Source: Acaryochloris marina MBIC11017
GTDB lineage: Bacteria; Cyanobacteriota; Cyanobacteriia; Thermosynechococcales; Thermosynechococcaceae
Length of the DNA stretch: 32,000 bases
Direction: 5' to 3'
NCBI RefSeq assembly: GCF_000018105.1
Contig: NC_009925.1
Span: 4,800,001 to 4,832,000 of the forward strand
Position 1 is the stretch's first letter; every line of letters begins with the position of its first letter. Below, piece after piece: positions 14,711-29,829 of the stretch. The notes below the pieces were generated by a model that saw nothing but the letters and a program-made list of their open reading frames with translations, made no database searches and had not been told where the DNA came from. The position numbers and the translations under genes were made by a program.

Positions 14711-14781
14711 GCGGGTGTAGTTTAGTGGTAAAACCTTAGCCTTCCAAGCTAATGATGGGGGTTCGATTCCCCCCACCCGCT
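14711..14781 (+). tRNA. tRNA-Gly (anticodon UCC)
   Basis: Manual cloverleaf. Acceptor GCGGGTG/CACCCGC, D-arm GTTT-AGTGGTA-AAAC, anticodon arm TTAGC-CTTCCAA-GCTAA (anticodon TCC), variable loop TGAT, T-arm GGGGG-TTCGATT-CCCCC, discriminator T. CCA is not encoded. Confidence 0.9.
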
Positions 14782-14794
14782 TTGCTTTGTATTA

Positions 14795-15038
14795 TGTACA
14801 TTGCACAGCTATTTGTCCGTTTTGCACAGTTAGTGTCCAAAATCGACAAGAAAATATTGGCAGAATTTAGGGAACAGTAATTTTGAGCAACAGGCTGTAA
14901 TCCTTATCCCTAGCCATTAACTGACTAAATTAAACTAATCAAGAGTGGACTCTGATTAGTTTAATATGCAGTACAATTCACATCTTGAGTAAAGAAAAAA
15001 CTACTTATTTGCTCGTTTTGCACAGTTAGTGTCCAAAA
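14795..15038 (+). repeat. array-proximal transposon end: terminal TGTACA plus three TnsB-site-like repeats
   Basis: TGTACA (14795-14800) is followed by TTGCACAGCTATTTGTCC (14801-14818) and TTGCACAGTTAGTGTCC (14822-14838). The 25-mer CGTTTTGCACAGTTAGTGTCCAAAA occurs identically at 14818-14842 and 15014-15038. The layout parallels the TGTACA + GTGACA... ends of ShCAST, as recalled from memory. Confidence 0.7.
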
Positions 15039-15058
15039 GCACCCACACAAAGCCCTCA

Positions 15059-15130
15059 GCATATCAAGAGCTGTTGTTGGAAGGCTAAGGTTTCTTTCAT
15101 CGCTCTAGACTCTCGCAATTATTCTAGGGC
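15059..15130 (-). ncRNA. delocalized short homing crRNA (diverged repeat + tRNA-Gly-matching guide)
   Basis: On the minus strand, a repeat-like segment ends GATGAAAG (rc of 15094-15130; array repeats end GTTGAAAG). It is followed directly by AAACCTTAGCCTTCCAA (rc of 15077-15093), which is identical to tRNA-Gly positions 14731-14747. Confidence 0.65.
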
Positions 15131-15173
15131 TATTCTGAGTGGGAAACACTAGAACAGGGAAGTATGCCTAAGC

Positions 15174-15426
15174 CTTTCAACTCCCAACACCCTCAAAAGG
15201 ACGTTGCGACGGAACTCAACGTCATGCTCTGCAATCATTTCAGTTCTTTCAACCCCCAACACCCTCAAAAGGACGTTGCGACACTTTACCTGGAAGCGGC
15301 TTGAGGTCAGTCGCGAACTTTCAACCCCCAACACCCTCAAAAGAACGTTGCGACCTCAATTGGAAATTAGAGGAGCAAACGCAATGCATCTTTCAACCCC
15401 CAACACCCTCAAAAGGACGTTGCGAC
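15174..15426 (-). CRISPR. CRISPR array, 4 repeats of 37 nt and 3 spacers of 35 nt (type V-K-like repeat)
   Basis: Repeats lie at 15174-15210, 15246-15282, 15318-15354 and 15390-15426, with + strand sequence CTTTCAACCCCCAACACCCTCAAAAGGACGTTGCGAC. The minus-strand form is GTCGCAACGTCCTTTTGAGGGTGTTGGGGGTTGAAAG. Repeats 1 and 3 each carry one mismatch. Spacers lie at 15211-15245, 15283-15317 and 15355-15389. Orientation is inferred from the GTTGAAAG 3' handle and the mutated repeat distal to cas12k. Confidence 0.9.
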
Positions 15427-15599
15427 AGTACCCAGCTAGAACCAAGTCACCAAATAGGTTTCAAGGAGTGAAATCGCAAACCTCTTGAATGAGATGGAAA
15501 TTAATGAATATACAGATCCTGGAGGCTAGCTCCAAAAGCCTGTAACTCATACTCGTCAATACTCCTAGGAATTGCGCGGACCTCTTGAATGGTTAGTGA

Positions 15600-15880
15600 C
15601 CTACAAAAGCGCAGAGAGTCTAGGGCTCCCCCCGATTAGGTATTAACAACACCCTCCCATAGACAAGGAAGGCATGGTTAATTTCCTCCTGAGGGGCATT
15701 TTAGAGCTGCCACGATACGTATGCCTGTATCTTTGAAATAGGTAATGAAACCAATCTCAAAAACATTGCTTTCTGCAACAGGTGCGACCATGCTGCCCAG
15801 TTCTTGAAAAGAACTCAAAAGCAGACAACTACAGGGACTGGAAAGTAGTTAAACTGGCCCATAATTTTCACGGTATTCGG
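15600..15880 (-). ncRNA. putative Cas12k tracrRNA region
   Basis: Noncoding gap between the cas12k remnant and the array. The minus strand contains ACUUUCCAGUCCCUGUAGUUGUCUGC, which resembles the CUUUCUGACCCUGGUAGCUGCU segment of the ShCAST tracrRNA as I recall it; CUUUC can pair with the GAAAG end of the repeat. It also contains AAUCGGGGGGAGCCCUAG near the 3' side. Boundaries are approximate. Confidence 0.4.
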
Positions 15881-15957
15881 CTTTACAGCCTACTATCCAT
15901 GCGCTGTCGTTAATTTTACTCTCCTAATCAGGAGTAAAATAACCACTTCGCAAATCT

Positions 15958-16833
15958 TCAGGAACTAGGGGCCTCATACTGAAGATGAGCATAAGCAATT
16001 TCTACAGATTGTTCAAAGGGACCAGCATTTTTATAGAATTTCAAGATGTTCACCTTCATCTCTCGCCTCTCAGCACAGTCTGCGATGCATTGAATTAAAC
16101 GGGTATAGCTCCAACGTGGATATCTCAGGCGAATGGCTTTTGCATACCGTTTCTGGAGCTGTTTATTGTTGGGGAACTTGAGCTGAGCCAGAGACTGAAC
16201 TCTGGCTTCAATGTGATCTTGAATGCCATGGGGAGATGGAAGGACGATGTCTCCAACTTGATGAGTTTGAGCCCATTGAATCAAATGATACGCAATAAGC
16301 TGGTCGCATTTTTTTCCAAGATTTTCTAGTCTCTTTGAACGGCGTAGCCTTCCTTTGGAGAATTCTTTCTTTTTAATCTTGCGCCAATAAACTCTTTGGC
16401 GATGTACACGGCCTATCAAATAGGCGAATTGACTTCTCTTAAAAGGTTTTAGCTTATCTTGATAGCCCTCCAATTTGAGTAGTTGAGGAGCCGTGATGGT
16501 TGCAACCAGCTTGCGGGTCTGATTATTTACGATTGAAGCTTGAAGTGGGAGCCCACAATAAAGGCTAACACCCATAGTTAATTCAGGGTTTCCAATGCAA
16601 GGAGAAACATGGGGCCTTCTGAGAGAAGCGTTCTGAAGACGATTAATGGATGATTGAGTCCGCTTTAGGTATGTTTTTTGCGTTTCCTTGAGTGTATTGA
16701 GCGATTTTCCCTCAAAAGATCGCAACTTCCCATTCTCCTCTTCGATTTTTTCAGCGCGGACCTCTGCAGTTCCTTCGTCAGAGAGCAGTCGTTCATCAAT
16801 GGTGCCGTGAAAATACAGTCGATGAGTTACCCA
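15958..16833 (-). pseudogene. cas12k: cas12k remnant (C-terminal ~290 codons only, no in-frame start)
   Basis: The translation VTHRLYFHGTIDERLLSDEGTAEVRAEK...GDIVLPSPHGIQDHIEARVQSLAQLKFP...RYAKAIRLRYPRWSYTRLIQCIADCAE aligns by eye with the C-terminal RuvC-like region of ShCas12k. The matching ShCas12k segments are HHLTLYCCVDNRLWTEEG..., GSIVLPKLGDMRE...QKYAKQYRVNVHRWSYGRLIQSIQ. The reading frame is open upstream of the tracked TTG at 16725 but has no ATG, GTG or TTG start. It abuts hsdR-derived sequence. Confidence 0.75.
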
Positions 16834-17368
16834 GGGTTTCTTTGGGGTCGCGGTCCTGGCAGTATTGCTTTTTAGCGTGGTAGACGGTCTGGCCAGACCA
16901 GGGGTTCTTTAGCTCCATGGTGGCCAGGGCGATACCGTTGACGAACAGCACCATATCGAGGGACAGGCCCGGATCGCTTTCGGAGTAGTGGACTTGGCGA
17001 GTGACAGAAAAGATATTGCGCTCGAAATTTTCGCGGATGGCAGGGTTGGCGTCGTTGTAGGGGAGACTGTAGAGCAGGGTAAAGTCGGCATCGTTGATGG
17101 AAATGCCTTTTTTGAGCACGGCCAGGACACCGTCTTTTTTTGCCTTGCGGTGAAAGCGTTCGAGGATGAGGCGTTGCCAGTTGGGCTGGTCCTGGACTTT
17201 GGCGAGTTCGTTGGGCTGGGTAGTCTCTAGAAAGCGCCAGAATTTTTCTGTATCGATGGCAAATTCGCGGTCAAAGTCAGCCGGTGATCCTTTTTCGTAG
17301 CCTGCCCCCTGTACTAGTGCGTTTTCGATGCAGTTTTCTAGGGCTTTCTCATTGGTTTGGCTGACCAT
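16796..17368 (-). pseudogene. hsdR: type I restriction enzyme R subunit, N-terminal fragment (~175 of ~1000 codons)
   Basis: N-terminal HsdR nuclease-domain pattern (MVSQTNEKALENCIENAL..., LDMVLFVNGIALATMELKNPWSGQTVYHAKKQYCQDRDPKETL). Unrelated residues and a stop then follow. The helicase domains are absent. Confidence 0.8.
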
Positions 17369-17378
17369 GAATTGTTTC

Positions 17379-17714
17379 TCACTCTTCTAGGGCTTCGGTT
17401 ACGGCAGTTTGAATCTCGTTGATTCTGACATCAGCTTGGTCTGATTTAGCGTAGACCAGCAATAGGAGCACGTCTTCAGGTGATATCACTTGGTAAATGA
17501 TTCGATATCCGCCACTTTTGCCGGTGGGAATATCGCTGTTCTTGGCACGAACTTTGAAGACAGTAGCTGTGGTTCCGGGAATTTGGTCACCGATGAAGTT
17601 ACCTTGCTCTAACTGTTGAATAACGGGCTGGAGGTCGGATTGAATTTGGCGGTAGCGCTTTTTGAGGCTTTTGAGACGACGCTTAAATCTAGGGGTAAAG
17701 CGAACGGAGATCAT
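17379..17714 (-). CDS. RelE/ParE-superfamily (HigB/Gp49-like) type II toxin
   Basis: 111 aa. Motifs FKVRAKNSDIPTGKSGGYRIIYQV and LLLVYAKSDQ are typical of this toxin family. It has a 4-bp ATGA overlap with the upstream small gene. Confidence 0.7.
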   Translation of the reverse strand: MISVRFTPRFKRRLKSLKKRYRQIQSDLQPVIQQLEQGNFIGDQIPGTTATVFKVRAKNSDIPTGKSGGYRIIYQVISPEDVLLLLVYAKSDQADVRINEIQTAVTEALEE

Positions 17715-17971
17715 GGTTCGTCTGCTAGATCATCCCAGAGCTGAGAAGCTGGGAAGGTTTGCCTAGCCGCGGCTTCTTGAAGAGAGATTTTAAGATCGGC
17801 TAGGAGCTGGGCGTTGGATTCGTGCTCATCGACCCAGGCTAAACCGCTAGCAGGATCTTTCAGGGTGCTGATCACTTGCTGCCACAGGGCGAGGGGAACT
17901 AGAACATCGGTGGGTTCTCCAGCAGCATTGGTCACGTATCGGACTTGGCCCTCAAGGGATGAATTCACCAC
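17711..17971 (-). CDS. putative cognate antitoxin
   Basis: 86-aa acidic protein immediately upstream of the toxin and translationally coupled to it. The call rests on position and size only. Confidence 0.5.
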   Translation of the reverse strand: MVNSSLEGQVRYVTNAAGEPTDVLVPLALWQQVISTLKDPASGLAWVDEHESNAQLLADLKISLQEAAARQTFPASQLWDDLADEP

Positions 17972-18075
17972 GGTTAGGGATCTCCTGCTTGTGTCTCTCT
18001 ATTTTAGTCGGGGCTATCCCTACGTTTTTATATTTTCTGTTCTTACACTGAGTTAGCTATCGGTTGGGCCTTGAG

Positions 18076-18627
18076 CTATGGGTGCATGAGGTAAGATATC
18101 TGAATTGTTATATCTTGAAAGGCCATGGGTGATACGGTGCCAGTTTTCAGGATGTTTTCGGTATCATAGTGCCCATTCTGCAGACTTTTGAAGATATGGA
18201 GCTGTTTATCCTTTAAATTGACGACCCAATATTCCTGTATTCCGGATGCAGCATAGGTATTTTTCTTAGTGGTCAGGTCTTGGGTGAGGGTGGCGTCGGA
18301 AAATTCGATGAGCCAGTGGATGTCGCTGGGGTAGGGATGATGGTCTAGATAGACGGTGCCCAGGGGTTTAACGATGGCTAGGTCGGGGATGGGTTCTGAG
18401 TCGTCGCTGAGGATGATGGGGTGGGCTTCGCGGACTTTGGCTCGGCTGCCCAGCAGGTTACGCAGGTAGTCACCGACTTCGCTGTTGTAGTAGGCGTGGG
18501 GTTCACCCTCTGGGGGCATGATGATGATTTCTCCGCGTAGTAGTTCGACGGGCTGGTCGTCGAATACGCCAGCTTGGATGGCCTGGTGGTAGCGGTCTAT
18601 GGTCCATTTGTAGGTGGTGACGGTCAT
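18076..18627 (-). CDS. Uma2 family (DUF820) PD-(D/E)xK endonuclease
   Basis: 183 aa. Motifs ELLRGEIIIMPP, PDLAIV, LIEFSDATLTQDLTTKKNTYAASGIQEYWVVNL match the Uma2 pattern. Confidence 0.8.
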   Translation of the reverse strand: MTVTTYKWTIDRYHQAIQAGVFDDQPVELLRGEIIIMPPEGEPHAYYNSEVGDYLRNLLGSRAKVREAHPIILSDDSEPIPDLAIVKPLGTVYLDHHPYPSDIHWLIEFSDATLTQDLTTKKNTYAASGIQEYWVVNLKDKQLHIFKSLQNGHYDTENILKTGTVSPMAFQDITIQISYLMHP

Positions 18628-18693
18628 AGGGACCTAGCCTCAGACTGGGGAAAGGGCTGATGTATCAGTAGTTTTAGTATGGCAAATTTAAGT

Positions 18694-19976
18694 TCAGACT
18701 TTTATCTTGCCGGTTACAGCATGTGATATCAAAATTTCTCTAAATTCTTGAAGCTTATTGATTTGTTCTTCTGCTCTTACTTGAGCAGTTTCAAAACCAA
18801 GTAACCGATTATCTAGGAAATCTACAATTTGATTCTGCTCTTCTACAGGGGGACAAGCAGTATATAGAGCTCCAATGCGATCGACGTTTAAGTTTTCCTG
18901 AGTACTAACAATTGAGACTTCGTCTAGCCGAGTTTTCAGCACTCCAAACATGTAATAGAGAAAGTCTGCAGAAACTTCACCTGGATTTGGGAAAAAACCA
19001 ACGGCACTATCAGGAAAGCAAGCATTAAAACCTAAAATTGAAACCTCTCCAGTCTTTGCTCCGGTAATAACCATTACAACTGTGCCAGCAGGAAATTCTT
19101 TGCTAACTGCATATCCTCTGGCATTGAGAGTCTGTGAATATTTTGTGATTCTTCTCCCAGCTTGGGATATGTCACCAGTTTGAATGAATGGGTATTGTCC
19201 ACCATAGAACCTTGCATCGTTACGAGGTCTATGAGAAAACTTCCCTCTCAAGATTTGCGTAAGTCTTTTGACACTACACAATTTCCAATGATTAGGAACT
19301 TTTTCTAGTCCATGTATGCCGCGATCGCACATCGGCACATTGGGGTCTAGCCCTTTGGTGACGGCTTGATTGATGAGGATGGCTTTTTGTTCTTGTAGGA
19401 GTTCGATGAGGCGCTGTTTGGTTGCTATGGCATCATCAAGCTCAACAGTTTTCCGATCAAGAAACTCAACAATCCGGCGTTGCTCATCAATCGGAGGAAT
19501 CGTTAAAGGTAAATATTTAAAGTCTGTGTAGTCTAAGTTTTGGCGTAACCCAGACCCCATACCGTAATAGACCTTCAGCAAATCATATGCATGTAAGTAA
19601 ATCTTGGATCTATCTGCTTCGAAGGGGAAAGACATAAATAAGCAGATGTGATAATTCCATGGTCTTGAACTAATCCAATTCGAAGACTCGTTCGATCATT
19701 CTGTAAATCTGTTGCCCGAACAATAATGTCCCCTGGCTCAACAATCTGATAAGTCTCAAAGGATTCAGGTACTAAGCCATGTAGTTTTTCTTTGGGCTTA
19801 ATTACAATTTTTCCATAACTCAGGGATAAAACGGTTTTAACGTGATTACCGATATTTTTTACATTTTTGGGCCTCAGATAATTTCTTCCAAGCTCTACTC
19901 GCCAATGGTTTGGAACCTCATTAAGCCAGGAAACTTGACTATCTTGATAAGTTTCATGTTTTGGGAAAGTCAACAT
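18694..19976 (-). pseudogene. hsdS: type I R-M specificity subunit, disrupted by a frameshift near 19600-19630
   Basis: Two overlapping ORFs (19575..19976 and 18694..19635) together give an HsdS layout: TRD1, the central conserved helix PPIDEQRRIVEFLD, TRD2, and the C-terminal helix PPVEEQNQIVDFLD. The reading frame switches within TRD1. Confidence 0.7.
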
Positions 19977-20071
19977 CCTTTATACCTCCCCAAAACTCAC
20001 CAACCGCTTCAACAAGCCTTCCATCTTCTGCTCCAGCACCAAAATTTCCTCAACCACCGTTTCCCAAATCC

Positions 20072-20410
20072 TCAGCCCACCGCATAGCCAGACGCTTTCC
20101 GCATAAACGGTGAGTGCAGCCCCAACACAATATTCTGTTTAGGAATGCCCTGCTCCACCAGCCGTTCAGCCAAATTAATCTCCGTATTATTGCGCTGAAT
20201 CCAGACCTTATTGTCCTTAATATCAATGTGGACAATGGTGCCGTACACAAACTGCTTTTGCTCCCAGCCCACATCGATCAAAAGATAGTGATTATGCTCC
20301 GCATCAAACACTAGCTGAGACTCCACATCGCTATGGCTAGAGTGATCATAGCCGTGTAACTCCCTGAGCAAATCCTCAACTAAGCATCGATAGTCCTTTA
20401 ACTCAGCCAT
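20072..20410 (-). CDS. xisI: XisI family protein
   Basis: 112 aa. The pattern DAEHNHYLLIDVGWEQKQFVYGTIVHIDIKDNKVWIQRNNTE is typical of XisI. It overlaps the xisH stop by 13 bp. Confidence 0.8.
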   Translation of the reverse strand: MAELKDYRCLVEDLLRELHGYDHSSHSDVESQLVFDAEHNHYLLIDVGWEQKQFVYGTIVHIDIKDNKVWIQRNNTEINLAERLVEQGIPKQNIVLGLHSPFMRKASGYAVG

Positions 20411-20811
20411 TCTAAAATCACCTCCGTTTCAGGCTCATAAACAATCAGCCTAATTTGATATTTTTGAACCACCGACTTTGCCAACAAAGACTGAAAAAAC
20501 GTACTGTAAATCTCTTCAGGAACAGCTAGATATAGCAGACGATTAGGCTCTTTATTTTCCAATGCTACCTGGTAGTTAATAAATTGACCGATAGCCAAAT
20601 GAAAATCGAAAACCACCGAATCACTGGCAAAGGTTTTCACCTCGACGGCAATTTTTTCCTCACCTCGCTCTGCGGCCAAAATACGCTCCGCACCCAAATC
20701 AATATAGATCCGAGTATCGCCAAACTTTAGGCTTAGCGGATCGTCCGTCACCGTCCAGCCTGCACTTTCCAGACCACGCTTCACCGCATCATGAAAGATA
20801 TCTTTAGCCAT
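20398..20811 (-). CDS. xisH: XisH family protein
   Basis: The N-terminus MAKDIFHDAVKRGLESAGWTVTDDPL and the segment IAVEVKTF are typical of XisH. The start was chosen at the ATG at 20811, which overlaps the hsdM stop; the ORF is open to 20826. Confidence 0.8.
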   Translation of the reverse strand: MAKDIFHDAVKRGLESAGWTVTDDPLSLKFGDTRIYIDLGAERILAAERGEEKIAVEVKTFASDSVVFDFHLAIGQFINYQVALENKEPNRLLYLAVPEEIYSTFFQSLLAKSVVQKYQIRLIVYEPETEVILEWLS

Positions 20812-23227
20812 CGGTAGTCGCCCCAAAACTGACTAACCGCTTCAATAAGCCTTCCGTCTTCTTCTCCAGCTCTAAAATTTCCTCAACGACCGTCTCCAGC
20901 TTCCTCAACGGTTTGTGCTGATAAAAATACTTATTGAAATTAATCTCATAGCCAATCTTCGTACTATCCAACGCGATCCAAGCATCCTCAACATGGGGCC
21001 GCACCTCCGCCAAAAAATACCCATGGATCTGCGCCGTACCCCGCTCCAGTGCCTGCCCATAGTTCAACGGCACACTTTCCGTATCCCGCAGCTCACTATC
21101 CGTCTCATACTCAATCCACTGCCCCGCCGTTTCCCCAGGCCAGTACCCAAAGTCCGCCAGGTGCTCCTCCGTGGTGCCCAAATGCTCCAATAACTCCGCT
21201 AGCTTCTCACCCTTCAGCTTATGCACCTTTTTAATCACCCTGGCCGCCGCCTCATCCCGCCAACTCACCGCATTAAAAATTTGCCTCTTCTCACTAGCCG
21301 ACAGCTTGCTGTCCAACTGTCTGGCCAAAGTTTTGAGCGTATCATTCACCCGCTCAGCAAAATCATTAAAATCATGCCAAACCTCCTGCTCCACCGAGGC
21401 CATGAGCTGCTCCGCTACCTGCATCAAATCCCGCTGATTTTCCCAGGTCTTCGCTGTAAACAACGCCTTGCGATTCTTCGCCGTCAGGCTAATTTCTTCC
21501 TTTTCCAGGTATTCCTCAATTTTTTGCTTATGGTCCGTTAGGCTCGTGTAAATCTCATCACCCCACTCACCATAGGCCCACTCCATTACCTCCGCCAGGA
21601 CAGGCACATAGCGCAGCGTCGCCACCCGCTCCGGCGTAAACTGAGCTAACAGCCGCAGGGGCCGTTCCACAGTTACCTTGTAAAAGCCAAAATCCTGATT
21701 ATCAAACACCTTAGAGATGGGCGGCGGTGGCAGCTCCCTATCTTCACTAGGCGGCAACGTCGGCTGATGCACCCGATCTAAATACAGGTGAGTAATCTTC
21801 TCAATCTGCTCCGGTGCAAACTCACAGTTCTTCGCCCCCAGATTCTTCCGCAGCTTGCGATACAGCTCCGACCTATCAATCAGCTGCACCTTTCCCTGCC
21901 GTTCCGGTGCCTTATTATTCGACAGCACCCACACATAGGTGGAAATGCCGGTGTTGTAAAACATATTCTGAGGCAACTGGACGATCGCCTCCAGCCAGTC
22001 ATTTTCAATGATGTAGCGGCGAATATTGCTCTCCCCGCTACCCGCATCCCCTGTAAACAGCGAAGACCCATTGTGAACTGACGCAATTCTGGAACCTGCC
22101 GGACTCTGGTCCAGAGGCTTCATTTTGCTAACCATATCCATTAGAAACAGCAACTGCCCATCCGAAGAGCGGGGCGTTGCCTTCTCTAAACTTTCCTCAT
22201 CCCAAAAATCCTTCAGTGGTAACAAAAACCGCTCATCCAGGACATCCTTGCCATCTAGGATATGTTTTTGATCCGCTGCGTAGGACTTGCCATAGGGTGG
22301 ATTTTCCAGCATGAAATCAAACCGCATTCCGGCAAACTCATCCATCGCCAGCGTCGATCCCAGTTTGATGTTCTCAGGACTATTCCCCTTAATCATCATG
22401 TCCGACTTGCAAATGCCATAGGTCTCCGGGTTGACCTCCTTGCCATAGAGGTAGACCTGAGCATCTGATTTGATTCCCCCCTCCGGGTCGCTGATAAAGT
22501 TTTGGGACTCTGTCAACATCCCCCCTGAACCGCAGGCCCCGTCATAGATCAACATCACGGGCGGAAGCTGCTCCTTCACTGGCATAAACAGCAAGTGTGT
22601 CATCAGCTTGATCACCTCGCGGGGGGTGAAGTGCTCTCCAGCCTCCTCGTTATTTTCTTCGTTAAACTTACGGATCAGCTCCTCAAACACATAGCCCATC
22701 CCCAGATTGCTCAAACCCGCCAGCTTGCGTCCATCCGGATCTTCACCTTGAGTTGGGCTGAAATTGATATAGGGACTCGTAAACTTTTCCAAGACATCTA
22801 ACAGTACATCCGCCTGCACCATCCGTTTGATTTGGTCCCGCAGATAAAAACTGTCAATGATCTCTTTGACGTTCTCGCTAAATCCATCCAGATAGGCTTT
22901 AAAGTTGGCCTCTAAAATTTGGCGGTTATTGGACGCCGTTTCAACTAATCTTTTCAGCGTCCAATCTGAAGTGTTGTAGAACACATAGCCCGAGGCATCC
23001 TTTAACGCACCAGACTCTAGCTCGGTCAGCCCCACGGATTCCCGCTGAAACCGAACCTCTTCCATGACTGCATCCTTGGTCTCCTCCAGCAGACAATCTA
23101 ACCGCCGCAGCACAAACATCGGCAAGATGACATCGCGGTATTTTCCGCGAACGTAGACATCACGCAAGCAGTCATCTGCAATCGACCAAATGAATGAAAT
23201 CAGCTTGTTTTGTGATGCTGCATCCAT
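20804..23227 (-). CDS. hsdM: type I restriction-modification system methyltransferase subunit (long form, 807 aa)
   Basis: HsdM N-terminal domain (LISFIWSIADDCLRDVY), AdoMet motif YDGACGSGGML and catalytic NPPYG motif. The frame is intact throughout. Confidence 0.9.
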   Translation of the reverse strand: MDAASQNKLISFIWSIADDCLRDVYVRGKYRDVILPMFVLRRLDCLLEETKDAVMEEVRFQRESVGLTELESGALKDASGYVFYNTSDWTLKRLVETASNNRQILEANFKAYLDGFSENVKEIIDSFYLRDQIKRMVQADVLLDVLEKFTSPYINFSPTQGEDPDGRKLAGLSNLGMGYVFEELIRKFNEENNEEAGEHFTPREVIKLMTHLLFMPVKEQLPPVMLIYDGACGSGGMLTESQNFISDPEGGIKSDAQVYLYGKEVNPETYGICKSDMMIKGNSPENIKLGSTLAMDEFAGMRFDFMLENPPYGKSYAADQKHILDGKDVLDERFLLPLKDFWDEESLEKATPRSSDGQLLFLMDMVSKMKPLDQSPAGSRIASVHNGSSLFTGDAGSGESNIRRYIIENDWLEAIVQLPQNMFYNTGISTYVWVLSNNKAPERQGKVQLIDRSELYRKLRKNLGAKNCEFAPEQIEKITHLYLDRVHQPTLPPSEDRELPPPPISKVFDNQDFGFYKVTVERPLRLLAQFTPERVATLRYVPVLAEVMEWAYGEWGDEIYTSLTDHKQKIEEYLEKEEISLTAKNRKALFTAKTWENQRDLMQVAEQLMASVEQEVWHDFNDFAERVNDTLKTLARQLDSKLSASEKRQIFNAVSWRDEAAARVIKKVHKLKGEKLAELLEHLGTTEEHLADFGYWPGETAGQWIEYETDSELRDTESVPLNYGQALERGTAQIHGYFLAEVRPHVEDAWIALDSTKIGYEINFNKYFYQHKPLRKLETVVEEILELEKKTEGLLKRLVSFGATTDG

Positions 23228-23402
23228 CAGCTACCTCTGCTAAGTCAAGTCATACTCAAAGAACATCCTCCACTATGCCCCCTTTTGGACAATTTCATCC
23301 TAGATACTCATATTCTTTTGGTTATCCTGGTCAAAATTGACTCAGTAGTGTTCCCATTAGCCCTGCATATTTATGTAGCGATCTCACCTTGGCCTTGTCT
23401 AC

Positions 23403-23660
23403 TTGCCACAAGACCTGGTCCAATACATCAATAGTCCCTTCGCCTCTTGGATGGACCGCAATATTCTCGATCGTCCTGATAGCGCCCCATCCACAGAAAC
23501 CGGCGAAATGGCCTACGCCCTAGTCCAGCTCGATCAAAAACACAAACAGCAATTTCTTGAGTCCCTGCTTCTGCAGGACACCGACGTTTACATCATTGAT
23601 AATCGAGGGGTCTTTGATACCACCCAATCGGCTATACAAGCACGTCTCCCCCTTCATTAA
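23403..23660 (+). CDS. hypothetical protein, possibly a gene fragment
   Basis: 85-aa ORF with a TTG start, and the only ORF between hsdM and the transposon end. It faintly resembles the N-terminus of RecB-like nucleases (SPFASWMDR). Weak support. Confidence 0.25.
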   Translation: MPQDLVQYINSPFASWMDRNILDRPDSAPSTETGEMAYALVQLDQKHKQQFLESLLLQDTDVYIIDNRGVFDTTQSAIQARLPLH

Positions 23661-23727
23661 CCAGGCTGTACTCAAAAGGCTTCACCAAGCTGTAAGAAGA
23701 CGATAAAGCTCCTCTATGGAAAAGAAA

Positions 23728-23908
23728 CGACACTTAGCTACGCAAAGATCGATATTACGTAGCACAGAAATAACACTTAACGATGCAAATCCGCTCTGGA
23801 TATGGAATATGAGCCGAATGCCTAAGAGCTTTATCAAATGATAGAGACAAGCATGATTGCCTTGCGACAGTAATTTCTAACCTGCTTCATTTATCCGTGC
23901 AATGTACA
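23728..23908 (-). repeat. array-distal transposon end: terminal TGTACA plus TnsB-site-like repeats
   Basis: Read on the minus strand: TGTACA-TTGCACGGATAAATGAAG (23885-23908), TTGCATCGTTAAGTGTTA (23771-23788) and TTGCGTAGCTAAGTGTCG (23728-23745). This is the same motif family as the sites at 14801-15034, in inverted orientation. Confidence 0.6.
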
Positions 23909-24244
23909 AATTTTCCAGAATTAATGTCACAAAACTAGAAATGTGACTGGTCGCTAGGGAATGTATACGATATCGTTTTGTGCGAGGATAAAACACAGAA
24001 CTCTTCACCTTTTGGGCTTTCTAGGTATCTCAGGACCAGCCAGTCACGATGCTATATTAGTAATCTTTATGATTCTAGGTGGATAAAATAGAATTTTCTG
24101 GTTCGTTTCCCAGAAGTAGTGTTATGTAACGCCTCGCATCACTTGCTGACAAAGCGCGTAGCAGTTTGGCGGTCCGTGTGCGTGCGCTTGTTAGGCTGGG
24201 GGCAACCACTACTGCTCCTTTTTTCAACCAGTATTCCGACCGTG

Positions 24245-24619
24245 TTAGGTTTCGATCTCATGGCAGACCACTTCAATATTGTGTCCGTCGGGGTCAAGAA
24301 CATAGGCCGCATAGTACCGCCCACTGTACTGAGGACGTTGTCCAGGCGGTCCGTTGTCTTGCCCGCCTGCATTGAGGGCGGCTCGATAGAACGCGTCGGC
24401 CTGATGCCGACTCTCAGCTACAAATGCAATGTGTAGATGCGCGGGTGTCTCTTCCGTTTGGTACAGGCATAGGGAACTCATGCCGGTTGGTTGACTAAGC
24501 TCAGCACCATTTGGCGGCCAATCCGTAACTACAGTCACCCCAATTGGTTCGAGTGCCTTAAGGTAGAAGTTCCTGCTCAGCGCAAAGTCGCGAACGCCGA
24601 ACTTTATATGGTCAAACAC
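24245..24619 (-). CDS. VOC (glyoxalase/bleomycin-resistance/dioxygenase) family protein
   Basis: Contains FDHIKFGVRDFALSRNFY near the N-terminus and AAYVLDPDGHNIEVV at the C-terminus. A GTG start at 24619 sits 4 nt after GGGGGA and gives the usual ~124 aa. The ORF is open to the ATG at 24697. Confidence 0.7.
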   Translation of the reverse strand: MFDHIKFGVRDFALSRNFYLKALEPIGVTVVTDWPPNGAELSQPTGMSSLCLYQTEETPAHLHIAFVAESRHQADAFYRAALNAGGQDNGPPGQRPQYSGRYYAAYVLDPDGHNIEVVCHEIET

Positions 24620-24864
24620 AAGTCCCCCTGTTTTACTTCGTTGGGTCAGCGGTAGTGTTTTACATGGCCTAACTATGGTTAGACGACTGACTGACATATA
24701 CTCCTCTACACAGAATATTAGATGTCAAGTGTCGTGTAATGCTCTGATTTGGATAGATAAAGTGACACATTGGTAGTTATCACTTATCTATTCACTCACT
24801 AGAAATATCTATCTCAAGAACAACAGTGCCATCAATAAAATTTGTAGATTTGGCGCTGCAGATA

Positions 24865-25037
24865 AGAAATGACGCCTAATTCTGGAAAGCCCTAAAAGAA
24901 ATGACATGTAATTTTGGAAAGATAATCAGTTGAGAAAAAAGTTGAATTTCTCCGAAGTCTTCATCTGGTATATTCTTCAAGGATTTAGAGCTGCGACATT
25001 AATTCCGAAAAAGTGTCATTTAATTTTGGAGTGTATA
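24865..25037 (-). repeat. cluster of a second family of transposon-end-like repeats ending in TATACA
   Basis: Direct repeats AGAAATGACGCCTAATTCTGGAAAG (24865-24889), AGAAATGACATGTAATTTTGGAAAG (24897-24921), GCGACATTAATTCCGAAAAAG (24993-25013) and GTGTCATTTAATTTTGGAG (about 25013-25031), then TGTATA (25032-25037). An inverted copy AATTTTCCAGAATTAATGTCAC lies at 23909-23930, directly after a TGTACA. Confidence 0.4.
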
Positions 25038-25261
25038 ACTGTCATCATCCTAGGGCTTATATCGAACTGGCTGGCCTACTGCGCCCTTAGAAACGGAGGT
25101 ATGACGAGGGACGAAAGCCTTAGGGTTCTTGGTATGATGCGCGAAGAGACTGCCTCTGCTTTGACAGGGAAAGATCTAGAAACTACAAAAGAACTTATGT
25201 TTAGCTAGGCACCGAGTGTCCTATTCCTATAGGGGCCTGGGGTGTCCCCTTCACGACGTCA

Positions 25262-25813
25262 ATGAAAATTAGCCAGAAATATTACTTGATTGTCGATCTT
25301 GAAGCCACCTGTGCAGATGATAATTCCATTCCTCGCCGCAGAATGGAGATGATTGAGATTGGAGCTGTGCTTCTCAACTCACAAACTCTGCAGATAGAAA
25401 GTGAATACCAGACCTTCATAAAGCCCATTCTTCATCCTGTGCTGACTGAGTTTTGCAAATCTCTGACATCCATCTCTCAGCAGGATATTGAAAAGGCCCC
25501 ACTTTTCCCGGCGGCTCTAAAAGATTTTCAATCTTGGTTTTACCCCTGTGGGAGTTATCTGTTTTGCTCTTGGGGAGATTATGATCGGCATCAATTTGTG
25601 CAGGATTGCCAGATGCATGGCGTTGGCTATCCCTTTCCGGGGGATCATCTCAATTTAAAGCGAGCATTCTCTAGCGAGATCAACTCAAAAAAGAAGTTTG
25701 GTATGGCAGGCGCATTGACCGAATTAGGTCTAGAGCTTGAAGGGGTTCATCATCGGGGTATAGATGACGCTCGAAATATTGCCCGCATTGTTCAAACTGC
25801 TTTTTCTGAGTGA
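25262..25813 (+). CDS. DEDDh 3'-5' exonuclease (ERI-1/KapD-like)
   Basis: 183 aa. Exo motifs VDLEAT, WGDYD and HHRGIDDARN. Confidence 0.8.
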   Translation: MKISQKYYLIVDLEATCADDNSIPRRRMEMIEIGAVLLNSQTLQIESEYQTFIKPILHPVLTEFCKSLTSISQQDIEKAPLFPAALKDFQSWFYPCGSYLFCSWGDYDRHQFVQDCQMHGVGYPFPGDHLNLKRAFSSEINSKKKFGMAGALTELGLELEGVHHRGIDDARNIARIVQTAFSE

Positions 25814-25895
25814 GTCTCTAGAAAGTTCACAACAGGTGTTTCGCAATGAGTCCCCCTATTCAGAACAATATTGACCGAGCCGTGAGTCTAAGAAC

Positions 25896-26405
25896 ATGCT
25901 GTTTACCATTGTCGAGAGTTTCTCTCCTAGAGACGGCGATCGCTGGATCACTTACTGCCGATGGCGGGGATTAGCCTTTACCTGTTTTGATTCGATAGAT
26001 GGCATTCTCAGACCCAGCCTTTTTGATGCAACAGAGAAGGACGATTGGAACCATGTTGTTAATCAGGATTGCAAGACTCACCTAATAACGGATTACGACT
26101 ACGCTGTTCACAAGCAGAGTGAGATAGGGCAGGGAGATCTGGTGGGTTTGAGATTTAGCGAGCATGATCAAAGCGATCCACGATTTTTAAGATTTGATTT
26201 AATCGATGGCTATTGCGACATCTCCTTGCTCACCAATTGGGGAAATGATGTGGATAGTATCAACCGTTCCTTGTCCCCTAATGCGCTAGTACTGAGTTAT
26301 CAGACCGTTAAGGCTATCCAAAAGGAATTGTTGCAGACGAATGGTACGGATCCGCATGTTGAAGGATGTCAGATCGTGTCAATTTACCGACTCAACGAGA
26401 CTTAA
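25896..26405 (+). CDS. hypothetical protein
   Basis: 169-aa ORF, co-directional with the exonuclease and the RT. No recognisable motifs. Confidence 0.45.
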   Translation: MLFTIVESFSPRDGDRWITYCRWRGLAFTCFDSIDGILRPSLFDATEKDDWNHVVNQDCKTHLITDYDYAVHKQSEIGQGDLVGLRFSEHDQSDPRFLRFDLIDGYCDISLLTNWGNDVDSINRSLSPNALVLSYQTVKAIQKELLQTNGTDPHVEGCQIVSIYRLNET

Positions 26406-26600
26406 CGAGTCGATGGAATATCCCTTTTGGGTGGGTTTGGACCTCCAGTGGAAACGGACGATGTTGGCCGTTGTATCTATGACGGTCCCGAGCCACTTCC
26501 AATGTTCATAGAAAGCTTTAAGACTGCAAACCCAACTTTGATATTGGGCATTCTACGAAGAGAGTGTTATGATACACTAACAGTACAAAAGTACTATATA

Positions 26601-26830
26601 GCTCGGTCAGTTTAGGTTTACCCCTTGCAACCCGAATGGTGCATCGCCATTCATGTGATTAGTCTAAACGCGCATCACTGGCTTGCTCTTTACTGTGCGG
26701 GGCTTCGCCCTACCATCGCTGTTACGGTTTAGTTTCCATGAAACTAACGAGCGATGGTAGGGCGGCCCCGCTCGAGTTGAGCAATCCAGTCCGAAGAGGT
26801 TTACGAAGAGGCGCTGAACTGACCGGGTTT
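26601..26830 (+). ncRNA. retron-like msr/msd non-coding RNA
   Basis: Flanking inverted repeats CGGTCAGTT (26604-26612, followed by TAGG) and AACTGACCG (26817-26825) resemble a1/a2. Small hairpins GAATGG-n7-CCATTC and GTGAT-n14-ATCAC are present. A long imperfect hairpin at 26697-26771 has 7+15+8 bp: GCGGGGC..CGCCCTACCATCGCT..TTAGTTTC-CATG-GAAACTAA..AGCGATGGTAGGGCG.GCCCCGC. It ends 60 nt upstream of the RT start. Confidence 0.55.
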
Positions 26831-26884
26831 ATTTTTTTCTAAATAGACCGCTATTTATATCATCGAGTTCACCTTTCTGACTCC

Positions 26885-28315
26885 ATGTCCAATCAACCCC
26901 GTACTCGCCAAGAACTCTACGATCGCGTCCGCCAAAGCTCCCGTGATGAGGTCATCCTAGAAGAAATGGTGCGGTTAGGATTTTGGCCCGCCGAAGGCGA
27001 GATGCCCCAAGATCCAACGGATGAGATTCGACGTAAAGGAGAAATTCAGCGAGAACTGGCAGCACTGCGGGCCGAGAACCGCAAACTGCACAACGAAGCC
27101 GCCATTAAAAAGCAGCTCTACAAAGAGCGACTCGCTGCGTCTAAAAAGAAACGCCAAGAAACCAAAGAACGGAGAGAGCAAGAACGACAGTCCCGAGCCG
27201 CTGCATGGCGGGATCGAAAAGCTCGGGATATTGTCTATCTGGGAACAGGAGTTTCCGGGGGCCTTAATCAGACCGAGTGCGATCGGACCCGACTTCAGCA
27301 ATATGGACTTCCTGCTTACGGAACAGCAGAAGAGATTGCCAAGGCCATGCAGATTAGCGTTGGCCAGTTGCGCTTCTTAGCCTTTTCTCGGCGTACCGCC
27401 CAAATTTCCCACTATGTCCGCTTCAAAATCCCCAAGAAAACTGGGGGAGAACGGCTGATTTCAGCCCCCATGCCCCGCCTGAAGCAGGCCCAATACTGGA
27501 TTGCAGAAAAGCTTCTAGCAGCCATCCCCCTCCACGAAGCTGCTCATGGGTTTTGTTCAGGACGCTCCATCGTTACCAATGCAACGCCACACTTGGGGGC
27601 TGATGTGGTGATTAACCTCGATCTCCAAGATTTTTTCCCGTCTATTTCCTATCCCCGGATTAAAGGCTTATTTCGTTCCTTTGGCTATAGCGAAGCTGCT
27701 GCCACGATTTTTGCCCTGCTCTGTACAGAACCAGATGTGGTGGAGGTGGGCTTGGATGGTCAGCATTACTATGTGGCCCAGTCTCAGCGACATTTACCCC
27801 AAGGGGCACCCACCAGCCCCATATTGACCAATCTGCTCTGTCGGCGTCTAGATCGTCGGTTGACGGCCATGGCGGCAGAGTTGGGATATCGGTATACGCG
27901 CTACGCCGATGATCTAACCTTCTCAGCCACAGGTCAGCCTCAGCAGCAGGTGGGCAAGCTGTTGCGAAGGACCCATGCCATTGTCACCCACGAAGGATTT
28001 ACGATTCATCCCCAAAAGACACGGGTGCTTCGCAGTGGTCGACAACAAGAGGTGACAGGGGTGGTGGTCAACGAAAAGCTGAACGTTGACCGTAAAACCC
28101 TCAAGCGATTTCGGGCGTTGCTCCACCAAATTGAACAGTCAGGCTACGACGATCAACATTGGGGTGGCCAACCAGTATCGTTTGCTCAGATCCAAGGCTA
28201 TGCCAACTTTGTGGAGATGGTGAATCCTGAACGCGGAGCCCAGTTCCAGGCTCAAGTTAAGCGAATTAAGCGCAAGTACCCACCCCGCGTTCAAGCCTTT
28301 AAACCAGCTTCTTGA
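26885..28315 (+). CDS. retron-type reverse transcriptase with ~130-aa N-terminal coiled-coil/basic extension
   Basis: 476 aa. Retron-type RT motifs are present: YVRFKIPKKTGGERLISAP, NLDLQDFFPSI, LPQGAPTSPILTNL, catalytic YADDLTFS and the retron-typical VTGVVVN. Residues 1-130 are rich in K, R and E. Confidence 0.85.
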   Translation: MSNQPRTRQELYDRVRQSSRDEVILEEMVRLGFWPAEGEMPQDPTDEIRRKGEIQRELAALRAENRKLHNEAAIKKQLYKERLAASKKKRQETKERREQERQSRAAAWRDRKARDIVYLGTGVSGGLNQTECDRTRLQQYGLPAYGTAEEIAKAMQISVGQLRFLAFSRRTAQISHYVRFKIPKKTGGERLISAPMPRLKQAQYWIAEKLLAAIPLHEAAHGFCSGRSIVTNATPHLGADVVINLDLQDFFPSISYPRIKGLFRSFGYSEAAATIFALLCTEPDVVEVGLDGQHYYVAQSQRHLPQGAPTSPILTNLLCRRLDRRLTAMAAELGYRYTRYADDLTFSATGQPQQQVGKLLRRTHAIVTHEGFTIHPQKTRVLRSGRQQEVTGVVVNEKLNVDRKTLKRFRALLHQIEQSGYDDQHWGGQPVSFAQIQGYANFVEMVNPERGAQFQAQVKRIKRKYPPRVQAFKPAS

Positions 28316-29720
28316 TTTCACCATAGGCACGATAGAAGCCACCGCGGGCAGATTCCCGCAGGTCTTCGACCACGTAGCGCGCTCCTGCTTCCCGCATCTC
28401 TTTGGGGAATTGGACATTCCAGTCGGTGTGATAACCCGCAGATTCCACCCGGACTCGCAATTTACTGCCGTCTTTTACACAGACTAAGATGATGCCCTGG
28501 CCAGCCTGGGTGGTGGTTTCTAACGTAGACGAAGCTGCGATCGCATCTAGTTTCGGCGCTTTCACATTCACCACATCCGGCACCGTACCAGCTTGAGCGG
28601 CTTGAATGGCGGCTTCACTAGCATCAATACAGGCCAACGAGCCATCCGTCGTCACAATATATAGACGATCTTGAATAAACTGCATGGAGAAGGCCGACCC
28701 ACATCCGGTTCCCAGCTTCCAGAGACGTTTGCCGTCTGCATCAAAACAATAAATAGAAGAGGAACTGTCTCCCGCAAAGACATATTTGCCGTCTGCCGCC
28801 GCTGCACAGGAATAAACCTGGTTATCGCATTTGAGAACTTGTTCTTGCTGCCCCTGTTTTGTAAAGCAATAGACCTGGCCCTGACTGGTACCGGCATACA
28901 CGGTTGACTCTTCCTGCCAGCCAAACAGGACCGCCCCCTGAGTTCGCTGATTCCAAATCACCTGACCGTCTTCCCAGTCATACATCGTCACTCCACCGAC
29001 ATGGCCATGGTAAACGCCGATCTCATCGCACCGGACCATCCAGCCGTGATCGCCACTACTGCGTTGATGCCACTGGGATTCTTCTTCATGGTTAATGGTG
29101 GTGACGACACCCTGGCGATCCGAGACCCCCAAAATCCCGTCGTTGATATCCAGCCAAAAGATATCGACATCCTCGGCAATAGAATAGGCCACTCGGGGGA
29201 TTTTACCGCTTAGGTCGTAGACTTTGCCATCGTCACAACCGGCATAGAGCCAATCATCATCAGCCACAATGCATTTAACGCCATCGGGAAGTTTAAACTC
29301 TTGAATGACGTTGCCATCGGGGGTGAGGGTAAAAATTTGTCCCTTTTGATTGCCTACCCAGCATCGCGATTCATCAATAAAGATGCCAAAGGCGGAGGCA
29401 CCAGAGGCAAACTTCCAGAGGACGGGCGCACGCTTGGCCGAGGAGCGGGTGCTGGTGATTTCCCGCCGAGTAATGGCCCGCTTCTTCCGTACCCCCTGGA
29501 CTGCATGTTCATAGCCTTTGCGCAGCTTGGCTTTGATTTTCTTCTCGGCTTCTGCTTTGGCTTTTTCGGGGGTCGCCAAGGTTTTCTCTTGGGTTTGGCC
29601 CGCATTGCCAATCCGTCCATACCGGATTTTTAATTCGGTGCCATTCACCACCACTTCGTAAAACTTGTGGGCAACCCCTTCGTCTTCTGACAGCTCTAAA
29701 TACGTTCTTTCTTCAGCCAT
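28299..29720 (-). CDS. WGR domain protein fused to a PQQ/BamB-like beta-propeller and an uncharacterised C-terminal domain
   Basis: 473 aa. N-terminal WGR pattern (HKFYEVVVNGTELKIRYGRIGNAGQTQEKTL...KLRKGY), a basic linker, then repeated beta-strand blades (DDDWLYAGCDDGKVYDL, VYAGTSQGQVYCF, YVFAGDSSSSIYCFD, LYIVTTDGSLACID). Its 3' end overlaps the RT 3' end by 17 bp. Confidence 0.7.
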   Translation of the reverse strand: MAEERTYLELSEDEGVAHKFYEVVVNGTELKIRYGRIGNAGQTQEKTLATPEKAKAEAEKKIKAKLRKGYEHAVQGVRKKRAITRREITSTRSSAKRAPVLWKFASGASAFGIFIDESRCWVGNQKGQIFTLTPDGNVIQEFKLPDGVKCIVADDDWLYAGCDDGKVYDLSGKIPRVAYSIAEDVDIFWLDINDGILGVSDRQGVVTTINHEEESQWHQRSSGDHGWMVRCDEIGVYHGHVGGVTMYDWEDGQVIWNQRTQGAVLFGWQEESTVYAGTSQGQVYCFTKQGQQEQVLKCDNQVYSCAAAADGKYVFAGDSSSSIYCFDADGKRLWKLGTGCGSAFSMQFIQDRLYIVTTDGSLACIDASEAAIQAAQAGTVPDVVNVKAPKLDAIAASSTLETTTQAGQGIILVCVKDGSKLRVRVESAGYHTDWNVQFPKEMREAGARYVVEDLRESARGGFYRAYGEIKKLV

Positions 29721-29829
29721 GCTGATCCTCTCTAATCCTCTGTCCTATAGGATTCACCTATCAGATCCAGTTTGACGCAAGGGGGGATCAATTCTCGTAG
29801 ATAAGCGTAAGGATGGCGATTGCACAGGC

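Follow-up and report, generated by a model that had tools for sequence, protein, structure and literature searches.

The 32,000-nucleotide stretch of the Acaryochloris marina MBIC11017 chromosome analysed here (the window, in whose positions all coordinates are given unless another locus is named) contains an element, E1, at positions 14795-23908. Judged from its sequence, E1 is a derivative of a CRISPR-associated Tn7-like transposon (CAST) that has no transposase genes and in which both ends are still recognisable. We consider it probable, at roughly 80%, that E1 is an inactive, decaying and immobile relic of a type V-K CAST inserted at tRNA-Gly. Today it would be DNA that is inherited passively, with its own effector and transposase absent and none detectable in trans. 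A first-pass annotation of the window had presented the termini and the guide-RNA module as preserved. This holds, but clear decay had been overlooked: a Cas12k fragment, an hsdR stub, a frameshift in hsdS, the lack of a target-site duplication (TSD) and the relic of a second element that abuts E1.

A homing junction at tRNA-Gly

The first base of E1 lies 64 bp after a GTA protospacer-adjacent motif (PAM) in the tRNA-Gly(TCC) gene (Table 1). Positions 15077-15093, which form the spacer of a delocalised CRISPR RNA (crRNA) directed at the attachment (att) site, match tRNA-Gly positions 14731-14747 in inverted orientation at 17 of 17 nucleotides (AAACCTTAGCCTTCCAA), and a truncated repeat ending in GAGAGTCTAGAGCGATGAAAG stands directly before this match. 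According to the rule for V-K elements, the element end is found 60-66 bp from a GTN PAM (summarised in Hsieh and Peters, bioRxiv 10.1101/2021.02.06.429022). The same work describes, downstream of cas12k and the array in Cas12k elements, a repeat remnant of ~13 nt plus a 17-nt spacer, along with a PAM of the form GTN and an att site in a tRNA gene (bioRxiv 10.1101/2021.02.06.429022). PAM, offset and att spacer of E1 all fit the published rule; the geometry of the left end is that of a textbook case of V-K homing.

A truncated cas12k gene

The effector gene of E1 is reduced to its 3' part. The open reading frame (ORF) of 255 aa annotated within it is identical to the hypothetical protein AM1_4776 of A. 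marina MBIC11017 and matches the NCBIfam model NF038191 at positions 406-627 of 629 (E 5e-41, 140.7 bits), a score just below the 150-bit cutoff because only these model positions are present. Residues 408-627 of the 639 residues of ShCas12k aligned to the same fragment (E 1.6e-20). With the Cas12k of Gloeothece as a tblastn query, homology extended up to 16839 (E 1e-30, 30.7% identity), and the cas12k reading frame is open to 16899. The N-terminal ~55% of the protein is missing, an intact effector being expected to have ~630-700 aa, and neither tblastn nor a frame check located this part elsewhere in the window. What remains is only ~29-31% identical to the other Cas12k proteins compared, and in a word-indexed search of 5.8 billion proteins the fragment matched itself alone, without any close full-length relative.

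At ~16840 the cas12k frame meets the 3' end of the hsdR stub, out of frame. This hsdR'/'cas12k join points to a single deletion that would have taken the bulk of hsdR, the codons of cas12k up to ~360 and anything that lay between the two genes.

Both transposon ends are family-typical

The window contains exactly two copies of TGTACATTGCAC, one on the plus strand (14795-14806) and one on the minus strand (23897-23908), where ~0.1 matches would be expected by chance, and the inverted match between the two ends of E1 runs to 17 nt at 88% identity. Within the left, array-proximal end, the motif TTGCACAGTTAGTGTC has two perfect copies (14822-14837 and 15018-15033), the terminal site being a variant that is longer by one base. 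The literal left-end motif misses the inner sites of the right, array-distal end, read on the minus strand as TTGCATCGTTAAGTGTT (23771-23790) and TTGCGTAGCTAAGTGTCG (23729-23749), because each has one extra base. A further right-end site at 23864-23880 was revealed by comparison with a sister family, described below. Termini with site-like repeats on both sides, as the first-pass annotation had reported, are thus borne out by the TGTACATTGCAC pair, three sites on the left and four on the right. The termini are Tn7-like TGT...ACA ends, and we predict that the repeats are TnsB-binding sites.

Related ends were sought by scanning the shared terminal pattern over one genome per species; two loci were informative. 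The terminal 48 bp of the left end are 98% identical to the end in one of them, L007, from an Acaryochloris metagenome-assembled genome (MAG), and 82% identical to the tnsB-proximal end of the other, L009, from a Chamaesiphon MAG. In L009, a tnsB in fragments, a tnsC-like ORF and tniQ are found 200 bp from TGTACATTGCACAGATATTTGTCC, and in L007 the E1-type left end is followed by a unit resembling an att-crRNA. Because the terminus adjoins transposition genes in one locus and an att-crRNA-like unit in the other, the E1 end type is genuine. Together with the sister-family comparison, these loci support the right end as a real end.

The inner half of the terminal site differs between the two ends of E1 (GGATAAATGAAG on the right, AGCTATTTGTCC on the left). 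The sister family is asymmetric in the same manner, with TGTACATTCCAGAATTATTTGTCC at its proximal and TGTACATTCCAGAATTAAATGACAC at its distal end. Its distal sites are positioned at the terminus, +25, ~+118 and ~+150, and those of E1 at the terminus, +25, +118 and +160; the TAAATGA signature of the E1 right end matches the sister-family distal end both in L021, an Acaryochloris locus described below, and at 24871-25038 of the window. At the proximal end of the sister family, the third site is found 220-250 bp in, as in the left end of E1. Since asymmetry and site spacing match those of the sister family, both ends of E1 are typical of the family.

Some other interpretations of the ends were set aside. 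We withdrew the idea that the right terminal site is degenerate (7 of its 12 inner positions differ from the left one), as the sister family has TATTTGTCC proximally versus TAAATGA distally. We also dropped a foreign insertion as the explanation for the 196 bp that separate the second and third sites of the left end, given that the third site of the sister family likewise lies ~220-250 bp in; it is more likely that L007 has suffered a deletion of this segment. An alternative right end further to the right would have to rely on a lone site-like match at 26573-26588, which is not accompanied by a terminus and is no more than chance would produce. Among the hits of the end patterns in genomes and metagenomes, L006 and L008 were due to chance, and the other scan hits were ends on short contigs or fragmented relatives.

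L007 (bases 1-369; Acaryochloris sp. IP29b_bin.176) itself has its E1-type left end in a context that is not a tRNA gene and looks plasmid-like, with a topoisomerase and iteron-like GTGCA repeats. Not only are the 196 bp between sites 2 and 3 missing there, but three GTGTCGTCTAACAC repeats replace the normal array, and bases 96-166 are 87% identical to window positions 24670-24739, a segment of the sister-family relic.

No transposition genes and no detectable partner

No ORF in the window matched the Pfam families rve, Mu-transposase C-terminal, AAA_22 or TniQ, tblastn with TnsB, TnsC and TniQ of Chamaesiphon and Gloeothece returned nothing in the window, and a six-frame Pfam scan of 23228-23908, the 680 bp between hsdM and the right terminus, gave no family match. 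These three lines confirm the reported absence of tnsB, tnsC and tniQ (tnsBCQ). The first-pass annotation had held that degraded remnants would point to simple decay; a remnant of cas12k was found, and none of the transposase genes was.

We also looked for a partner beyond the window. When the Cas12k fragment and an E1-family TnsB were compared with 72,556 plasmids by tblastn, no Acaryochloris copy was recovered. In a set of 5.8 billion proteins, the best 120 relatives of TnsB include none named Acaryochloris, and two TnsB relatives that we traced came from environmental metagenomes and not from Acaryochloris. The cas12k catalogue of Hsieh and Peters, which lists genes of at least 500 aa, has no Acaryochloris entry. 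As for further copies of E1, its exact HsdM protein is found in one context only, its cargo DNA is absent from the plasmid collection, and end-pattern scans gave no second full copy in a genome collection that does not include the MBIC11017 chromosome. L009 (506-3588) is the only relative recovered with transposition genes. This locus also looks degraded: its tnsB is spread over three ORFs (helix-turn-helix, rve and Mu C-terminal) and its tnsC region is fragmented.

Array, att-crRNA and probable tracrRNA

The guide-RNA module that had been proposed for E1 is real, consisting of a four-repeat array alongside the att spacer with its complete match. The array repeats end in GTTGAAAG, as in V-K CASTs; matches of Rfam CRISPR-DR15 to the array are weak, and the spacers had no match in plasmid or phage collections. 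A 530-nt gap separates the array from the next ORF, and it is in this region, between the array and the cas12k remnant, that a trans-activating CRISPR RNA (tracrRNA) is probably encoded. In RNAduplex predictions, the att pseudo-repeat and the array repeat both pair best at one and the same site, 15627-15610, with the same 3-nt spacing to GAAAG; the pairing of the att unit was equalled in 15 of 500 shuffles. The region further contains a terminator-like hairpin at 15631-15613 and a candidate UUUCA ~115 nt upstream of the 15627-15610 anti-repeat, and for V-K tracrRNAs two anti-repeats ~120 nt apart have been described. No Rfam family covers the region, Rfam having no model for V-K tracrRNAs.

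A 78-bp fragment of plasmid pREC1 of A. marina MBIC10699 (L011, 20001-20078) is 93% identical to the last array repeat of E1 and the DNA adjoining it, with neither a transposon end nor cas12k nearby.

An apparently rearranged right junction and a second relic

The 5-bp flanks of E1 differ, with TATTA on the left (14790-14794) and AATTT on the right (23909-23913), so E1 has no TSD. At the right terminus, a TnsB-like site of the sister family comes immediately after the palindromic TGTACA. This site is the first of several (GACAnnTAATTnTGGAAA; 23911-23931, 24871-24888, 24903-24920, 24992-25012 and 25015-25032) in a V-K-like sister-family relic that also contains an att-crRNA-like unit (CTAGAAAT plus ATCTATCTCAAGAACAA, 24807-24823), for which the window holds no target. 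The relic is without a tRNA-proximal terminal site of its own. Together, the missing duplication and the missing terminal site of the neighbour point to a rearrangement of the right junction after insertion. What caused it is a matter of speculation; recombination between successive insertions at the same site is one candidate, and an adjacent deletion of the kind produced by replicative transposons is another. V-K CASTs have no TnsA and transpose replicatively. An empty-site reconstruction of the junction found no relative with the same right flank. The relic also carries a VOC/glyoxalase gene, whose closest DNA relatives in the plasmid collection are rhizobial (Sinorhizobium and Ensifer, ~69% identity), suggesting that it is foreign cargo.

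The same site in other Acaryochloris genomes

Orthologous tRNA-Gly loci were located via orthologues of the neighbouring GGDEF gene. In L016 (9650-9720) the site is without a transposon end, in L015 (~9689-9715) a lone E1-type terminus, TGTACATTGCAGAGTTAGAC, gives way to unrelated DNA, and L014 (~9640-9705) has a sister-family end, TGTATATTCCAGAGTTAAACGAC. In Acaryochloris sp. IP29b_bin.148 (GCA_028285565.1; L021, 6685-9693), a sister-family element of 3.0 kb occupies the same tRNA-Gly site. This element contains no tns or cas genes. Its TGTACATTCCAGAATTA ends are perfect, as is its 5-bp duplication (AATTC); the terminal site is present in a further tandem copy of 29 nt, and the proximal end is duplicated internally. 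Before the internal copy of the proximal segment stands GGAGCAATGCAC, which resembles a decayed form of the GTGCAATGTACA junction in the MBIC11017 window. The distal 374 bp of the element are 90% identical to window positions 24667-25038 and the flanking housekeeping DNA is ~72% identical, hinting that gene-less sister-family units may have spread more recently.

That orthologous loci differ in this way marks the tRNA-Gly att site as a recurrent landing pad at which V-K elements arrive and then erode, so that relics of two sister families come to be stacked at a single tRNA att site. The gene aspS lies 0.8-5 kb from tRNA-Gly in L014, L016, L021 and L023, and other core genes follow the site in L015. 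No aspS is present within 17 kb of tRNA-Gly in the window (14795-32000); therefore, either the inserted island exceeds the window or the region has been rearranged.

Relationship to described CASTs

Among 282 cas12k genes, Hsieh and Peters found 152 with tnsBCQ nearby and 130 without, and they attributed the latter to inactivation and degradation (bioRxiv 10.1101/2021.02.06.429022). The end, the array and the tRNA att site are still identifiable in such loci (bioRxiv 10.1101/2021.02.06.429022), and the first-pass remark that either outcome, a non-autonomous CAST or a domesticated island, is rarely documented is, on these counts, wrong. Like E1, the degraded loci keep an end, a short array, a truncated repeat with a 17-nt att spacer and a tRNA att site without tnsB-tnsC-tniQ, and in them too the att site is downstream of the cas12k/array module and the PAM is GTN. 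They differ from E1 in having cas12k genes of at least 500 aa, compared with ~294 C-terminal codons in E1. With so short a remnant, E1 would have been filtered from that catalogue, and it stands one decay step further on, its cas12k being truncated as well.

Among the catalogued loci is a Cas12k element at tRNA-Gly in Leptolyngbya sp. FACHB-541 (Table S1, row 95), in which the spacer AAACCTTAGCCTTCCAA and the PAM region GTGGTA are identical to those of E1, the repeat is related (GTCGC...TTTGAAAG) and no tnsBCQ is listed. Its Cas12k is full length (~703 aa), unlike that of E1, the middle of its repeat differs and the host belongs to another order. ShCAST of Scytonema hofmanni (Tn7747) shares with E1 the homologous C-terminal region of Cas12k (residues 408-627), TGT...ACA ends, a 37-nt repeat with GTTGAAAG at its end, tRNA-gene homing and a tracrRNA, probable in E1, that is located between the array and cas12k. 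In contrast to E1, which is without tnsB, tnsC and tniQ, ShCAST is autonomous and has proved active in experiments; the end sequences also differ. On plasmid1 of Calothrix sp. NIES-4105, a 'hypothetical protein' of ~205 aa is a C-terminal Cas12k fragment without adjacent tnsBCQ. It is plasmid-borne, unlike E1, and with its truncated cas12k it is a separate case of such decay.

In the literature that we searched, no paper mentions Acaryochloris together with Cas12k or Tn7-like elements. E1 represents an uncatalogued and strongly diverged V-K lineage and, through Acaryochloris, extends the recorded cases of CAST decay to a new host genus and order. It leaves the understanding of CASTs unchanged, because degradation of tnsBCQ at att sites has already been described as frequent. 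It also carries a caution, in that 'orphan' arrays or tracrRNA-like loci beside cyanobacterial tRNA genes can be the wreckage of CASTs.

A proposed history and its alternatives

From the anatomy of E1, we infer an autonomous ancestor that would have had tnsB-tnsC-tniQ, cargo, cas12k, tracrRNA, array and att-crRNA all aboard. This ancestor would have homed to tRNA-Gly(TCC), with Cas12k and the att-crRNA, made of a truncated repeat and a 17-nt spacer, reading the GTA-flanked protospacer in the tRNA gene. TniQ, TnsC and TnsB would then have placed the array-proximal end 64 bp downstream of the PAM. Later, hsdR was joined at codon ~175, out of frame, to codon ~360 of cas12k, probably by one deletion; tnsB-tnsC-tniQ disappeared from the array-distal side, hsdS picked up its frameshift, and the right junction appears to have been rearranged after insertion. 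Two family-typical ends, the att-crRNA, a three-spacer array, the probable tracrRNA and a partly broken defence cargo are left today, in an element that would no longer move.

Several observations weigh against so final a verdict. No family-typical site is missing from either end, the array repeats hardly differ from one another, the att spacer matches perfectly and the left end shares 98% identity with the end of another Acaryochloris element; the cis-acting parts, being little decayed, could in principle still serve as substrates. The number and order of the deletions are inferred, as no intact close relative was recovered for comparison, and an autonomous partner on the MBIC11017 chromosome is excluded only indirectly, given that this chromosome was outside the scanned genome collection. 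A non-autonomous CAST that brings its own guides and obtains TnsB, TnsC, TniQ and Cas12k in trans from an autonomous relative would have just such family-typical site architecture at both ends and an att-crRNA, array and anti-repeat that look intact. Such mobilisation in trans, which the first-pass annotation had entertained, would also agree with the gene-less sister-family element with perfect ends and TSD in another strain, and with the E1-type ends in several Acaryochloris contexts, including a plasmid-like contig, from which we conclude that the family was once active in the genus. It nevertheless found no positive evidence: E1 shows TATTA versus AATTT where a TSD should be, no second copy was found, and neither Acaryochloris plasmids nor proteins named as Acaryochloris contain partner genes, that is, an E1-type TnsB or Cas12k. 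The interior truncations, namely the hsdR'/'cas12k join and the hsdS frameshift, are haphazard and not those of a streamlined element, and E1 occupies its own homing site, as a dead autonomous copy also would. We judge mobilisation in trans to be improbable. A shade less credible still is the wider proposal that the Acaryochloris tRNA-Gly(TCC) site hosts gene-poor 'mini-CASTs' moved in trans, among which E1 and the sister-family minis might be counted; if true, non-autonomous RNA-guided transposons supplying their own guides would for the first time be known from nature. E1 would gain in interest only if gene-less elements with intact ends proved to be mobilised in this way.

The decaying V-K relic, which we prefer, also has to be set against a domesticated defence island, in which selection would have kept a cargo of type I restriction-modification (R-M), toxin-antitoxin, Uma2 and XisHI genes. 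The full-length hsdM and the intact ORFs for the ParE-like toxin and its antitoxin, Uma2, XisH and XisI would suit such an island, as would the defence-rich neighbourhood indicated by a type XIII retron nearby. However, the R-M system as encoded is incapable of restriction, its restriction subunit being cut to 190 aa and its specificity gene carrying a frameshift, orthologous Acaryochloris loci are without this cargo altogether, and there is no sign of selection on the unit as a whole, all of which makes domestication a faint prospect. Rather unlikely, but deserving some weight, is a composite origin, in which the left module (end, guides and 'cas12k) and the right module (cargo and right end) derive from different E1-type insertions that recombination or deletion brought together, or in which the right-hand TGTACA belongs to the neighbour. 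This would overlap with the relic that we favour and alter only its history. The absent TSD, the palindromic TGTACA with a sister-family TnsB site directly after it and the out-of-frame join at ~16840, which could be a seam, are compatible with two insertions; moreover, GGAGCAATGCAC in IP29b_bin.148 looks like the same junction in a decayed state, so that the junction may predate the well-preserved left module. On the other hand, GTGCAA, which stands upstream of TGTACA, is a specific mark of the E1-type end and absent from intact sister-family ends, and the four E1-like sites with family-typical spacing in 23729-23908 argue for a real E1-type distal end in the correct orientation.

Cargo and other features

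By sequence criteria, hsdM, the ParE-like toxin pair and the Uma2 nuclease look intact, and the rest of the cargo seems worn. Positions 3-129 and 130-439 of the 448 positions of the PADLOC model Specificity_I fall on the two hsdS ORFs, which are in different frames. An 87-nt direct repeat with 85% identity between its copies (19988-20074 and 20821-20907) flanks xisH-xisI, which suggests that these genes entered between hsdM and hsdS as a cassette and that the 3' end of hsdM was duplicated.

Table 1. Positions of E1 features and of the adjoining tRNA gene and relic in the window.
Feature	Position	Strand	Details
tRNA-Gly(TCC), attachment site	14711..14781	+	ARAGORN; Rfam tRNA, 76 bits
Protospacer	14731-14747		within tRNA-Gly; PAM GTA at 14728-14730
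Left (array-proximal) end	14795..15038	+	terminal site TGTACATTGCACAGCTATTTGTCC; adjacent site 14819-14839; third site 15015-15036
Delocalised att-targeting crRNA	15077..15114	-	pseudo-repeat GAGAGUCUAGAGCGAUGAAAG (15114-15094), then 17-nt spacer AAACCTTAGCCTTCCAA (15093-15077)
CRISPR array	15174..15426	-	four 37-nt repeats (GTCGCAACGTCCTTTTGAGGGTGTTGGGGGTTGAAAG), three 35-nt spacers; 72-nt period
Probable tracrRNA region	15427..15957	-	anti-repeat 15627-15610, then U-run; candidate upstream anti-repeat UUUCA at ~15738
5'-truncated cas12k remnant	15958..16840	-	~294 codons; annotated ORF AM1_4776, 15958-16725, 255 aa
hsdR stub	16796..17368	-	190 aa, N-terminal domain only; Pfam HSDR_N; TIGR00348 positions 99-158 of 674
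ParE/RelE-like toxin	17379-17714	-	
Putative antitoxin	17711-17971	-	
Uma2 nuclease	18076-18627	-	
hsdS, frameshift-split	18694..19976	-	133-aa ORF 19575-19976; 313-aa ORF 18694-19635; Pfam Methylase_S
xisI-xisH cassette	19988..20907	-	xisI 20072-20410; xisH 20398-20826; between hsdM and hsdS
hsdM, apparently intact	20804..23227	-	807 aa; Pfam N6_Mtase, HsdM_N; PADLOC MTase_I full-length, E 7e-254
85-aa ORF	23403-23660	+	within 23228..23728, where tnsB would start in relatives
Right (array-distal) end	23729..23908	-	terminal site TGTACATTGCACGGATAAATGAAGC (23908-23884); sites 23880-23864, 23790-23771, 23749-23729
Sister-family relic, V-K-like	23909-25038		1.1 kb; abuts E1 right end; terminus TGTATA 25033-25038
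VOC/glyoxalase gene in sister-family relic	24245-24697	-	

The type XIII retron lies at 26590-28315 and comprises a reverse transcriptase at 26885-28315 (PADLOC RT_XIII, E 8e-200). The stretch upstream of the reverse transcriptase gene folds into a very stable RNA structure (z = -8.0; 0 of 200 shuffles), and a 473-aa protein with WGR and beta-propeller parts, encoded convergently on the minus strand (28299-29720), weakly matches the type XIII accessory model.

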